Shown one piece after another: positions 58,780 through 62,044 of a stretch of DNA of 64,000 bases. The stretch is from the NCBI RefSeq assembly GCF_053078305.1, contig NZ_CP166875.1; one strand, 5' to 3'. The notes below the pieces were generated by a model. That model was not told the DNA's origin. It ran no database searches and saw only the letters and a list, made by a program, of their open reading frames with translations. Position numbers and translations under genes: made by a program. Source of the DNA: a plasmid. The stretch's first letter is position 1. Every line of letters begins with the position of its first letter.

Positions 58780-58858
58780 AACTTGAAAATCGCCGATGCA
58801 GGGAGGGACTAGCTCCCTGCATCGACTGTCCATAGAATCCTTTGAGGAGGTTCCTATG
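58780..58858 (-). ncRNA. finP: FinP-type antisense RNA against the traJ leader (approximate)
   Basis: Perfect stem-loop CGATGCAGGGAGGGACTAGCTCCCTGCATCG in the traJ 5' UTR. Confidence 0.4.
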
Positions 58859-59026
58859 TGTGCGATGGATACTAGAGAAAGAGCACTCATACGTCAATCA
58901 GGCCTGCCGGAAATTATTTTATCCGCAAAATATCCAGTCTGTGTCCGCACAGAGTCAGGAAAATTCATAGACTCAAACTCTGTTTTTTTACACTCAATAA
59001 AGTGTCAGAATTGTGATTCTGAAATA
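58856..59026 (+). pseudogene. traJ: traJ 5' fragment (57 codons) truncated by IS66-family insertion
   Basis: MCAMDTRERALIRQSGLPEIILSAKYPVCVRTESGKFIDSNSVF...; frame continues at 61567. Confidence 0.75.
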
Positions 59027-59056
59027 GTAAGCGTCAACGGAGCACCGTATTGACGC

Positions 59057-60670
59057 TTATTTATTGGTGAGTACTACGTTCCATGGCAGGAGTTCATCAA
59101 CTCGGTTGGAAGGCCATTCTGGCAGTACGCTCAGGATATGGCGCAGATACGCTTCCGGATCGATACCGTTCAGACGGCAGGTGCCGATCAGCCCGTACAA
59201 CAGTGCTCCACGCTCGCCGCCGTGATCGCTGCCAAAGAACATAAAGTTTTTCTTTCCGAGACAGACTGCACGAAGCGCTCTTTCCGCAGCATTATTATCC
59301 GCCTCCGCCAGACCGTCATCACTGTAATAACAGAGGGCATCCCACTGATTCAGTACATAGCTGAACGCTTCGCCCAGTCTGGATTTTTTCGACAGCGTAC
59401 CATTCTTCTCCACCATCCATTCATGCAGTGACGTCAGTAACACTTTGCTTCGCTGCTGCCTGACGGCAAGACGCTCTGACTCCGGTAATCCCCGTATTTC
59501 ATCCTCGATGGCGTACAGTTCACTGATTCGCTTCAGGGCTTCTTCTGCCGTCGCACTTTTGCTGCTGATGTATACATCGTGGATTTTTCGCCGGGCATGG
59601 GCCCAGCACGCAACTTCTGTCAGTGCACCACCTTCACGTTCTGCACTGAACAGCCGATCGTAACCGCTGAACGCATCCGCCTGCAGGATACCCCGGAAGG
59701 GACGAAGGTGTTGTACCGGATGTTTTCCCTGCCTGTCTGGTGAGTAGGCGAACCAGACCGCCGGTGGCTCTGATGAGCCCGCATTCCGGTCATCCCGGAC
59801 ATACGTCCAGATGCGTCCTGTTTTTGCCTTTTTTCTGCCCGCTGCCAGCACTTTTACTGGTGTGTCGTCAGTGTGAACCTTGCGGGTGTTCATCACGTAA
59901 CGGTACAGGGTATCATTCAGCAGAGTCATTAACTGACAACATGCGTCAACCCAGTTGGAGAGTAATGCCCGGCTCAGTTCGATGCCCTGGCGGGCAAAGA
60001 TTTCACTCTGACGATACAGTGGCAGGTGTTCGCAGTATTTTCCCGTTAACACGCGGGCAAGTAATCCGGAGCCCGCGATGCCGCGCTCTATCGGGCGGGA
60101 CGGCGCTGGCGCTTCAACTATACAGTCACATTTTGTACAGGCTTTTTTTACCCGAACAGTGCGGATCACTTTCAGGGCGCTACTCACCAGTTCCAGCTGC
60201 TCAGCACTGACTTCCCCCAGATAATCCAGCTCACTGCCACACTCCGGGCAACAACTTTCTTCAGGCTCCAGACGGTGTATTTCACGGGGAAGATGTGCCG
60301 GTAACGGACGACGATGACGTGACTGTCGCAACTGGCGGGGAACCTGCGGGTCATCCTCACGCCCACTGTAACGATCGCTTTCCTGTTCGCGTTGTTTCAG
60401 TTGGGCCTCAGCCTGTTCAACCTCACGCTGCAGTTTTTCAGAACGGGTACCGAACAACATCCGGCGCAGTTTTTCTATCTGGGCCCTCAGATGTTCTATT
60501 TCCCGCTCCTCCTCTTCGATCTTTTCCTCGGCACGTGCCAGTGCAGAGCGCAGGAAGGCCTCCGTCTCTTCAACCAGACTCAGTTGCTGATCTTTCTGAC
60601 GGAGGGCTTCAGCCTGCTCAGAGAGCAGCCTTTCCAGCTCAGTGATACGAATGAGGTATTTCCGACTCAT
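59057..60670 (-). CDS. tnpC: IS66-family transposase (TnpC/orf3)
   Basis: 537 aa with N-terminal coiled coil and Cys-rich zinc-finger-like segment. Confidence 0.85.
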   Translation of the reverse strand: MSRKYLIRITELERLLSEQAEALRQKDQQLSLVEETEAFLRSALARAEEKIEEEEREIEHLRAQIEKLRRMLFGTRSEKLQREVEQAEAQLKQREQESDRYSGREDDPQVPRQLRQSRHRRPLPAHLPREIHRLEPEESCCPECGSELDYLGEVSAEQLELVSSALKVIRTVRVKKACTKCDCIVEAPAPSRPIERGIAGSGLLARVLTGKYCEHLPLYRQSEIFARQGIELSRALLSNWVDACCQLMTLLNDTLYRYVMNTRKVHTDDTPVKVLAAGRKKAKTGRIWTYVRDDRNAGSSEPPAVWFAYSPDRQGKHPVQHLRPFRGILQADAFSGYDRLFSAEREGGALTEVACWAHARRKIHDVYISSKSATAEEALKRISELYAIEDEIRGLPESERLAVRQQRSKVLLTSLHEWMVEKNGTLSKKSRLGEAFSYVLNQWDALCYYSDDGLAEADNNAAERALRAVCLGKKNFMFFGSDHGGERGALLYGLIGTCRLNGIDPEAYLRHILSVLPEWPSNRVDELLPWNVVLTNK

Positions 60671-60700
60671 GACCGTTTTTATAATCCGGCCATGACATTT

Positions 60701-61051
60701 TTACAACATTGTCAGTGCATTAAGGCGGGATGTTTTGGGCTGACGCCAGTCCAGTTTATCGAGGAGCATTGCCAGCTGCGAGCGGGTAATGGATACCTTA
60801 CCGTCACGCACCGCAGGCCAGATAAACTGGCCTTCCTCCAGACGTTTGGTGAACAGGCACAGACCATCAGCATCAGCCCACAGAATTTTAATCGTGTCAC
60901 CCCGTCGGCCGCGAAAGATAAACAGGTGACCGGAGAAGGGGTTCTCATCCAGCACATGTTGTACCTGTTCTCCCAGACCGTTGAAGGATTTACGCATATC
61001 AGTAACGCCGGCAACCAGCCAGATTCGAGTGCCTGATGGGAGCGAGATCAT
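60701..61051 (-). CDS. tnpB: IS66-family accessory protein TnpB (orf2)
   Basis: 116 aa MISLPSGTRIWLVAGVTDMRKSFNGL... Confidence 0.85.
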   Translation of the reverse strand: MISLPSGTRIWLVAGVTDMRKSFNGLGEQVQHVLDENPFSGHLFIFRGRRGDTIKILWADADGLCLFTKRLEEGQFIWPAVRDGKVSITRSQLAMLLDKLDWRQPKTSRLNALTML

Positions 61052-61473
61052 CGTCCCCTCCCGGTCAGTTCACGGATCAACACCGTGAGCAGCTCTGGTG
61101 AAGGATTTTCCAGCGTCATGTTACCGTGGCGGAACTCAACTTTACAGGAACTGGCACTGACTGTGCTTTGTGAAGGAGTGGATAAAAGCGGAGTAAGAGC
61201 CGCCACAGGCTCTTTCTGCTCATCAGGCGTTATCTCAACAGGTAATAATTCAACGCCAGCGCCAGAAGAGGTTGTTACCGGAAGACGCCGCGATATACGC
61301 CCTTCGTTCTGCCAGAGCCTGAGCCATTTGAACAGGAGGTTATCATTGATATCGTGTTCCCGGGCAATACGGGCAACAGAGGCTCCTGGTTGTGAAGCCA
61401 GTTTAACCATTTGAAGTTTAAACTCATTTGAAAATGATCTGCGGGGTTCTGAGGATAATATTTTCTGTTCCAT
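61048..61473 (-). CDS. tnpA: IS66-family accessory protein TnpA (orf1)
   Basis: 141 aa, overlaps tnpB start by 4 nt. Confidence 0.8.
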   Translation of the reverse strand: MEQKILSSEPRRSFSNEFKLQMVKLASQPGASVARIAREHDINDNLLFKWLRLWQNEGRISRRLPVTTSSGAGVELLPVEITPDEQKEPVAALTPLLSTPSQSTVSASSCKVEFRHGNMTLENPSPELLTVLIRELTGRGR

Positions 61474-61566
61474 AACAGGTGTCCACTAGTTGAAAAGGTG
61501 GGCACCTACGTTACCAATACTGGCTTAATGGCTACATACGGCGGTCAGTTTACGCTTACCTGAAAT

Positions 61567-62044
61567 ATGGTTTTCTGGTATTGATATTGATACGCAAATT
61601 TTATTTCAGACTGCTGAAGTTGATGCTTTTTCGTCCTCAAATGGAGTGAGCATTATTAATGGTGTAATATTGAATGATGTATCATGGGATGTGGTGATTG
61701 AAAGTACCGAAGTGAATGACTTGAATTTGTTTGTCTGGAGATTTTTCGAAAGATACGTAGTTAGTAGCTTTTTTATAAAGGGCAAGGAGTTTTGTTGTGA
61801 ATCTGACAAATATCGCTTTAATAAGATAATACCGTATCTTTTGGGTTATAGTCATGAGTATTCTGCTCAGAGAATGGATGTCTCTATTGACCAGTCTAAA
61901 AAAATATTTATGAATTTTAAAAAACACTATGGTTTCTCAGACAGGGATGAGTGGTTGCGATATGCTATAATTTCTGATGTGTTATTTTATCTATATCAAT
62001 ACTTCGCTAGTAATATTAACAACCTTCACCGCAAAGAAATGTAA
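61567..62044 (+). pseudogene. traJ: traJ 3' fragment downstream of the IS66-family element
   Basis: In frame with 58856-59026 once the IS and one TSD copy are removed; ends ...YQYFASNINNLHRKEM. Confidence 0.7.

Follow-up and report, generated by a model that had tools for sequence, protein, structure and literature searches.

Does an F-like plasmid lose the ability to transfer itself when traJ, the gene of its master activator, is split by an insertion sequence? In this work we have addressed this question for an IncF colicin B/M plasmid, of which a stretch of 64 kb, hereafter the window, was analysed. In this plasmid traJ is flanked by traM and traY, FinP is encoded antisense to the traJ leader, and the coding sequence of traJ is divided by an IS66-family element. 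We consider it very probable that the locus represents a recent knock-out of traJ by IS682, with the loss of a self-transfer that could be restored by complementation.

Which gene has been interrupted, and what is left of it? The 5' fragment of traJ (58856-59026, plus strand) consists of codons 1-57, and in a tblastn search with the restored TraJ it matched residues 1-57 with 100% identity. The original prediction had the traJ frame run for 57 codons from 58856 and stop at the boundary of the element. The native codons were counted correctly, but the frame, which begins with the ATG at 58856, enters the element and reads eight extra codons (VSVNGAPY) as far as a TGA at 59051-59053, giving a product of 65 aa. 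The 3' fragment (61568-62044, plus strand) holds codons 58-215 and the stop codon; tblastn aligned residues 56-215 to 61562-62041, again with 100% identity, and the first two codons of this match lie within the duplicated 8-mer described below. The sole possible internal start in this fragment is a GTG at 61646, which would give 132 aa. Removal of 59027-61567, that is, of the element together with one copy of the duplication, joins the two pieces into a single open frame, 215 codons long, with its end at 62044, in agreement with what had been predicted, and NF010276, the NCBIfam model for TraJ, matches the resulting 215-aa protein along its full length (positions 1-215 of 215; 480.2 bits, cut-off 444), a match which describes the reconstruction only, the actual DNA having traJ in two pieces. 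Exact copies of the restored TraJ sequence are present on 291 public contigs. A Pfam search with TraJ returned no match even at E = 10. Residues 17-119 of the restored protein align by sequence similarity to 4KQD, the structure of the PAS domain of F TraJ (E = 2e-8), and residue 57 is therefore placed inside the N-terminal PAS domain. Judged by its sequence, the interrupted gene is traJ.

The limits of the insertion were read at both junctions. On the left, GTGATT is followed by CTGAAATA and then by the start of the element, GTAAGCGTCAACGG; on the right, the element ends with GTTTACGCTTAC, which is followed by a second CTGAAATA and then by TGGTTT. These readings place the element at 59027-61559 (2533 bp); the point of insertion is between codons 57 and 58 of traJ. 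The span had been given as 59027-61558 (2532 bp), of which the left end stands and the right end was one base short; a deletion that uses the earlier end coordinate (61566) produces a frameshift in traJ, which confirms the correction by 1 bp. The 8-bp CTGAAATA is a target-site duplication as clean as had been claimed: its copies lie at 59019-59026 and 61560-61567, they are the only two occurrences between 58000 and 62600, each abuts one end of the element, and the empty site in plasmid pFHI_NMBU_11_02 has a single copy. Two given 8-mers are identical by chance with a probability of 4^-8, or about 1.5e-5. The G+C content of the element is 52.9%, compared with 38.6% and 32.7% for the two pieces of traJ.

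The inserted element can be identified from sequence matches as IS682, a member of the IS66 family. Its identity to PLSDB and E. coli chromosomal copies that carry the IS682 annotation is 99.7-99.8%, with 99.8% for chromosomal copies in EHEC strains, and the name rests on the RefSeq label of these near-identical copies, 'IS66-like element IS682 family transposase'. Its transposase genes are on the minus strand, antiparallel to traJ, and all three are intact and score above their NCBIfam cut-offs: tnpA (61473-61048; accessory protein of 141 aa; NF047595, 85.5 bits, cut-off 74), tnpB (61051-60701; accessory protein of 116 aa; NF033819, 121.1 bits, cut-off 50) and tnpC (60670-59057; IS66-family DDE transposase of 537 aa; NF033517, 442.7 bits, cut-off 180). 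The first two overlap by 4 bp and both lie upstream of tnpC. The predicted family and three-ORF layout are borne out, and the element can now be named specifically. Its ends are also of the expected GTAAGCG type. The terminal inverted repeats, at 59027-59050 (the tnpC end, which contains an outward-facing TTGACG) and 61536-61559 (the tnpA end, ending GTTTACGCTTAC), are imperfect, with 20 of the first 24 positions matching, and both open with GTAAGCGT. The copy of IS682 in the EHEC/STEC chromosome of E2865 (NZ_AP018808.1) resembles that in the window in its length of 2533 bp, its tnpA-tnpB-tnpC order, its GTAAGCG repeats and its 8-bp duplication, and its annotated transposase gene of 1614 bp has the same length as the window tnpC. 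The two copies are 99.84% identical; all four bases at which they differ alter amino acids (A277P and F436C in TnpC, G58R and V90M in TnpA), and tnpB is identical. Their targets differ: in E2865 another IS66-family tnpC, with the duplication GAGAAAGA, and in the window the plasmid traJ, with CTGAAATA. BLAST matches to IS682 extended 6 bases into each flank (query 322-2866), and a strict target motif for IS682 was considered and rejected, the flank match being a partial resemblance of GAGAAAGA and CTGAAATA that comes from one widespread EHEC locus.

The empty site is seen in pFHI_NMBU_11_02 (NZ_CP045714.1), in which CTGAAATA is single and no IS stands where the window plasmid has traJ::IS682. 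The uninterrupted traJ of this plasmid (protein WP_044783688.1, allele class NF010276) differs from the window traJ without the element at 1 of 648 bases (99.8% identity), and a comparison with a relative, which had been suggested as a check on the split gene, has thus yielded a near-identical empty-site allele. Over 5.6 kb the flanks show 99.86% identity, and the two plasmids have in common the gene order oriT, traM, traJ, traY, traA, traL, traE, traK. From 57489 to the start of traJ they are identical, and from there to 64000 a single base differs (none in 61662-64000), which means that the insertion is recent and the pieces of the gene have not decayed. pFHI_NMBU_11_02 is classified as conjugative by MOB-suite, and more than one replicon (IncFIA plus IncFIC) is assigned to the closest relative.

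The insertion is also rare. The traJ allele was uninterrupted, meaning that one match covered at least 80% of it, in 247 of 249 PLSDB records and, among complete E. coli genomes, in 199 of 202 records. The same insertion was not found, as no record in PLSDB or the complete E. coli genomes (n=5,426) covered at least 80% of the 3.4-kb junction query. The exact 39-nt pattern of the left junction was absent from the GTDB species-representative genomes and the JGI metagenome contigs, and the truncated products (65, 85 and 132 aa) from a collection of 15 billion proteins. A literature search for traJ with IS terms, which gave mostly 'trajectory' false positives, brought up no published case of an F-like traJ divided by an IS. 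In none of the collections searched does the junction recur, and traJ::IS682 therefore provides a clean lineage marker.

What surrounds the split gene? A nic-like motif of oriT, GTAGTGTGTGGTGCTTTT, lies at 57948-57965 on the minus strand, with two mismatches to the nic sequence of F. The traM gene (58279-58662, plus strand; 127 aa) is intact and matches NF010267 at positions 1-127 of 127 (231 bits, cut-off 104). A promoter-like site for traJ, ATGACA-17-TATATT (58720-58748, plus strand; 10 of 12 in a consensus scan), ends 5 bases upstream of the start of the Rfam match to the traJ 5' UTR, the target of FinP, which is intact over the full model (58753-58861, plus strand; RF00243, 124.7 bits, gathering score 50). 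The gene of the FinP antisense RNA is intact as well (58786-58862, minus strand; RF00107, 95.9 bits, gathering score 45), and the consensus scan gave a promoter-like site for it, TTGACG-17-TAGTAT, at 58897-58869 on the minus strand. Downstream of traJ lie the PY control region (within 62045-62162), an intrinsic terminator consisting of CCGGCACTAAAAGTGCCGG and then TTTTTG (62051-62069, plus strand) and an intact traY, with which the TraJ-dependent tra operon begins (62163-62390, plus strand; NF010300, 144.6 bits, cut-off 114). About 2 kb of this operon is visible, from traY to the start of traK, and it is intact. The claim that oriT, traM and the downstream tra genes are undamaged holds for the nic-like motif, for traM and for this stretch of about 2 kb, at whose end the check stops because the window ends at 64000.

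More questions are raised by the consequences for transfer. TraJ and ArcA are described as 'absolutely required' against the silencing by H-NS of PY, 'the only known promoter' of the tra operon (PMC7303359). The activation of PY by TraJ, and the need of TraJ for transfer, are known from the alleles of F and R1, and the PY promoter of R1 responds to the TraJ of R1 and not to that of F (PMC7303359). When TraJ is supplied in trans, the transfer of an R1-like plasmid rises about 100-fold or more (PMC4211555). In the mechanism that we propose, IS682 would have transposed into the PAS-domain part of traJ, between codons 57 and 58, duplicating CTGAAATA. The only product of traJ would then be the 65-aa protein, made of 57 TraJ residues and 8 encoded by the element, and the 3' remnant downstream would be unexpressed. 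The activation of PY by TraJ is likely to be lost. Without it PY would stay silenced by H-NS and the genes for the pilus, the secretion apparatus and the relaxase would be off, so that the plasmid is probably unable to transfer itself. A host without F-type pili would be expected to resist male-specific phages. Neither the cis elements nor any of the visible tra genes has been damaged, and transfer should therefore return with a matching TraJ allele in trans or after a rare precise excision of the element; mobilisation with the aid of a helper would depend on such an allele match. TraJ is reportedly dispensable when H-NS is absent (Will and Frost are said to have found this in 2006), and residual transfer may for this reason occur in some hosts or conditions.

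Could transfer continue in spite of a real knock-out, with TraJ coming from a second traJ of the same class, either on the plasmid beyond the window or on another F-like plasmid in the same cell? We regard this as unlikely. It is true that the 64-kb window is part of the plasmid only, and that the closest relative is a multi-replicon plasmid. In addition, positions 1-3343 are an inverted duplicate of leading-region segments (97% and 90% identity); this duplicate points to an earlier cointegration, or to recombination, with a second F-like backbone, and the plasmid has therefore been rearranged and may hold further duplicated transfer-region DNA. However, an intact traJ elsewhere, which was looked for across the 64 kb with tblastn, was not found (nothing was better than E = 0.23), and the complete E. 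coli genomes that carry the allele have a median of one copy per genome and a maximum of two. Nor would just any other F-like plasmid suffice, because the action of TraJ is allele-specific (PMC7303359).

The possibility that IS682 itself drives transcription outward into traY and makes the tra genes independent of TraJ, the 'deregulated' state that the original prediction had offered as an alternative to transfer deficiency, finds no support and seems to us very unlikely. The ends of insertion sequences may bear outward-facing -35 elements, and here the TTGACG at the tnpC end does pair with a CACAAT in the flank to form a hybrid site, TTGACG-16-CACAAT (59037-59010, minus strand). However, this site faces FinP and traM, not traY, and the tnpA end has no promoter-like site toward traY. 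The lone plus-strand site (61803-61830) is native traJ sequence that is present in intact alleles, the terminator at 62051-62069 stands between the element and PY, and the transposase genes run antiparallel to the tra operon. Still less probable is a misassembly in which a repeated IS was misplaced and the real traJ is intact. IS66-family elements match a median of 4 places per E. coli genome, and up to 47, and repeats of this kind are a classic cause of such errors, but a perfect 8-bp repeat of a single-copy target, flush with both terminal repeats, is not produced in this way, and the window copy differs at four positions from the chromosomal copy with which it was compared. Lastly, it is scarcely credible that translation of the 3' remnant begins at the GTG and that the 132-aa C-terminal fragment activates PY: the open frame (61646-62044) does exist, but there is no promoter-like site upstream of it, the only GGAG directly abuts the GTG and is thus poorly spaced, the fragment lacks residues 1-83 and with them the greater part of the 4KQD-aligned PAS domain, and the collection of 15 billion proteins does not contain this exact product.

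The knock-out of traJ by IS682 is an ordinary one and teaches nothing new about the biology of IS66 elements or of TraJ. It matters for the annotation and the assessment of the plasmid. Typing by gene content would probably still score it as conjugative despite the broken master activator, since it may have the full set of relaxase and pilus genes. In a risk assessment, this colicin/IncF plasmid would be expected to spread mainly vertically, barring a matching TraJ in trans or the loss of the element.

Is traJ::IS682 part of a wider pattern? A single IS in one regulator of the FinOP-TraJ-PY cascade is also known to alter transfer in the F plasmid, where finO is interrupted by IS3, the repressor is thereby removed and transfer is raised by two to three orders of magnitude (Yoshioka et al. 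1987, cited in PMC5102898). The direction is opposite: finO::IS3 increases transfer, whereas traJ::IS682 removes an activator and should abolish it. Two hits that seemed to join the traJ flank to an IS66-like element proved to be different events, with ISEc23 at other sites. ISEc23, an IS66-family element with about 93% DNA identity to the window IS, lies in pRHB12-C01_2 (CP057877.1) and pEC542_1 (NZ_CP018969.1) within the same few kb as the window IS682, in the same orientation to the tra operon and with 8-bp duplications. In pRHB12-C01_2 it separates traJ from traY, the start of which lies 27 bp downstream of the element (duplication ATTAGTCG), and in pEC542_1 between traL and traK, in place of the expected traE (duplication GTCATTTA). 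Both plasmids have an intact traJ, in contrast to the split gene in the window. Perhaps elements of this family (IS682, ISEc23) favour the AT-rich control end of the IncF tra region and act as a recurrent, selected and reversible off-switch of conjugation, but we think it improbable. The AT-rich tra control region is bound by H-NS in R1 (PMC7303359), the three independent insertions are a few kb apart and share their orientation, and the four target duplications, including that of the E2865 chromosomal copy, contain 50-75% A+T. A further hint is that in draft genomes N-terminal TraJ fragments were seen that end at contig ends. If it were true, such an off-switch could reduce cost or evade pilus-specific phages, and it could be undone by precise excision or by a helper plasmid.

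One minor observation concerns another piece of TraJ. A 158-aa partial TraJ, considered as a match for the 3' fragment on account of its length (215 - 57 = 158), was rejected, as it is an N-terminal fragment cut elsewhere.

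In this work we have examined traJ, which encodes the activator of the tra operon promoter PY and is split on this plasmid by IS682, an element of the IS66 family. The interval 58000-62600 was read directly and its ORFs listed, and the junctions were fixed by script. The left junction reads ...GTGATT-CTGAAATA|GTAAGCGTCAACGG... and the right one ...GTTTACGCTTAC|CTGAAATA-TGGTTT..., and the element therefore spans 59027-61559 and is 2533 bp long. The original prediction placed its right end one base short, and a deletion made with that coordinate results in a frameshift. The 8-mer CTGAAATA has only two copies in 58000-62600, at 59019-59026 and 61560-61567, and both directly abut the ends of the element, which bears out the clean 8-bp target duplication that had been proposed. 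Removal of 59027-61567, that is, of the IS and one duplication copy, leaves a single 215-codon open frame (58856-62044), again as predicted. As the sequence stands, the frame is indeed broken by the insertion, but it does not stop at the IS boundary as had been claimed: it enters the IS for 8 codons (VSVNGAPY) and ends at 59051-59053, giving a product of 65 aa. The G+C content is 52.9% in IS682, and 38.6% and 32.7% in the two pieces of traJ.

That the split gene is traJ was confirmed by the restored 215-aa protein, which matched NCBIfam NF010276 ('conjugal transfer transcriptional regulator TraJ') at positions 1-215 of 215 (480.2 bits; cut-off 444); an identical protein is recorded on 291 public contigs. 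No Pfam family was found for it. Its residues 17-119 align with the PAS domain of F TraJ in the crystal structure 4KQD (E = 2e-8), and the break after residue 57 thus lies inside this domain. The cluster of the restored TraJ also holds four N-terminal fragments of 158, 162, 191 and 130 aa (P0007, P0009, P0010 and P0011), labelled 'partial' and originating from draft genomes of Shigella sonnei and E. coli. These may mark contig breaks at other positions in traJ, in which case those positions could likewise carry inserted repeated elements.

Judged by its sequence, the inserted element is an ordinary IS682. Both terminal repeats begin with GTAAGCGT and agree at 20 of 24 positions. The expected IS66 three-ORF layout is present, with three intact ORFs on the minus strand that each score above the curated NCBIfam cut-off: tnpA (61473-61048, 141 aa; NF047595, 85.5 bits against 74), tnpB (61051-60701, 116 aa; NF033819, 121.1 against 50) and tnpC (60670-59057, 537 aa; NF033517, 442.7 against 180). 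Megablast found copies of 99.7-99.8% identity annotated by RefSeq as IS682, chiefly in EHEC/STEC chromosomes and also in some large plasmids; the window holds no second one. The copy in the chromosome of E. coli E2865 is equal in length and differs at four bases (59364, 59842, 61206 and 61302), all of them amino-acid-changing (A277P and F436C in TnpC, G58R and V90M in TnpA). Whereas our copy lies in traJ, that of E2865 lies in another IS66-family tnpC, with the duplication GAGAAAGA.

The uninterrupted gene is common. The restored 648-bp traJ matched 249 PLSDB records, 247 of them with one match of at least 80% of its length and the best at 99.8% identity; among complete E. coli genomes, 199 of 202 records, all plasmids, had one such match. 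The closest relative is the IncF plasmid pFHI_NMBU_11_02 (human faeces, Norway), which MOB-suite types as conjugative; it provides the empty site, with a single CTGAAATA. Relative to it, the restored 55856-64000 (5.6 kb) shows 7 substitutions and a single 1-base gap. Because only one base (61661) differs between the start of traJ and 64000, the insertion is, on this comparison, recent; no change is seen in traY, traA, traL, traE or the start of traK, and the traJ fragments show no further decay. The IS682/traJ junction was found in no record of PLSDB or of the complete E. coli genomes, its exact 39-nt sequence is absent from GTDB representative genomes and JGI metagenome contigs, and the truncated products are absent from a collection of 15 billion proteins.

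The context of the split gene fits an F-like transfer region: a nic-like motif, GTAGTGTGTGGTGCTTTT (57965-57948, minus strand), traM (58279-58662, NCBIfam), the traJ 5' UTR (58753-58861, Rfam) with FinP on the opposite strand (58862-58786, Rfam), an intrinsic terminator after traJ (62051-62069) and traY (62163-62390, NCBIfam). Promoter-like sites occur where those of traJ and FinP are expected. The prediction that traM and the tra genes are intact holds for traM and from traY to the start of traK, in which the window ends; finO and the greater part of the tra operon lie beyond it. At 59037-59010 (minus strand), TTGACG of the IS terminal repeat and CACAAT of the traJ flank form, with a 16-nt spacer, a hybrid promoter-like site, by consensus match only, which is directed out of the IS, with the orientation of FinP and antisense to the traJ 5' fragment.

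What would the insertion do to transfer? H-NS silences PY, and for this silencing to be lifted TraJ and ArcA are 'absolutely required'; TraJ recognizes its binding site in an allele-specific manner (PMC7303359). An R1-like plasmid with a vector control gave no detectable transconjugants (transfer frequency < 1.0 x 10^-3), and with R1 TraJ in trans 1.0 x 10^-1, a stimulation which its authors put at about 100-fold (PMC4211555). As the PAS domain is interrupted at residue 57, functional TraJ would not be made, PY would remain silent, neither pili nor relaxase would be produced and the plasmid would be unable to transfer itself. We infer this loss of self-transfer as the predicted phenotype. Since all cis elements and visible tra genes are intact, transfer should return with TraJ of the matching allele in trans or upon precise excision between the 8-bp repeats. 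TraY raises traM expression and itself depends on PY, and intact traM is therefore no guarantee of normal TraM levels. With traS expression lost, the host should take up a related helper plasmid more readily.

Could TraJ come from elsewhere? The window holds no second traJ; the plasmid has been rearranged, since leading-region DNA is duplicated in inverted orientation at window 1-3343, and other transfer-region DNA, including another traJ, may lie outside the window. The originally suggested 'tra-deregulated' state finds no support, as the transposase genes are oriented opposite to the tra operon, the sole promoter-like site at an IS end (TTGACG + CACAAT, tnpC end) faces FinP/traM and away from traY, none reads from the tnpA end toward traY, and the traJ terminator still stands between the IS and PY.

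IS682 and traJ are each well known, and it is ordinary for an IS to disrupt a gene; traJ::IS682 is an insertion allele without earlier record, its structure is confirmed and its functional effect would be predictable. The literature searched, the coverage of which is limited, yielded no description of an F-like traJ split by an IS. The nearest classical parallel, as cited in PMC5102898, is finO::IS3 in F, with the opposite effect on transfer. ISEc23 (2532 bp) lies in the proximal tra region of two other IncF plasmids, in the same orientation as our IS682: in pRHB12-C01_2 (CP057877.1; L001, 3898-6429) between traJ and traY, 27 bp upstream of the traY start, with the duplication ATTAGTCG, and in pEC542_1 (NZ_CP018969.1; L002, 5053-7584) between traL and traK, in the place expected for traE, with GTCATTTA. 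Together with ours these are three independent IS66-family insertions within a few kilobases. The main use of the finding is in correct mobility annotation of the plasmid and as a lineage marker; its general interest is low.

In the rest of the window, 1918-3343 matches 45674-44253 inverted (97.3%) and 1-1328 matches 51055-49739 inverted (90.0%), so that the leading-region segments 44253-45674 and 49739-51055 are duplicated at 1-3343, with a second ssb-like gene (810-1337, minus strand). The arrangement is suggestive of an earlier recombination or cointegration event involving another F-like backbone. Typical IncFII plasmid homology begins only at 3341. Scattered in the leading region are three direct repeats (45736-46364, 49069-49728 and 54713-55374), each about 630-660 bp long and sharing 93-98% identity, and a partial, inverted fourth copy of 200 bp lies at 1657-1857; they may correspond to the non-coding repeats that occur in F-like leading regions. 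An accessory block at about 9036-36650, also present in pFHI_NMBU_11_02 (L005; NZ_CP045714.1 19462-38045) and matching it at 99.6%, carries a radical SAM, deoxynucleoside kinase and NudI cluster, a phospholipid-type cluster (phosphatidate cytidylyltransferase, lysophospholipid acyltransferase, hydrolase/methyltransferase and DMT transporter), several toxin-antitoxin pairs, colicin M with its immunity gene and a ProQ/FinO-family gene distant from the tra region. Rfam RNA matches lie at 4828-4984, 54116-54287, 5784-5874 and 3428-3570; these comprise two separate antitoxin RNAs of the sok (hok/sok) type, one close to the IncFII replicon and the other within the leading region, as well as CopA at the repA locus and a match to the antisense RNA AS-pc02.
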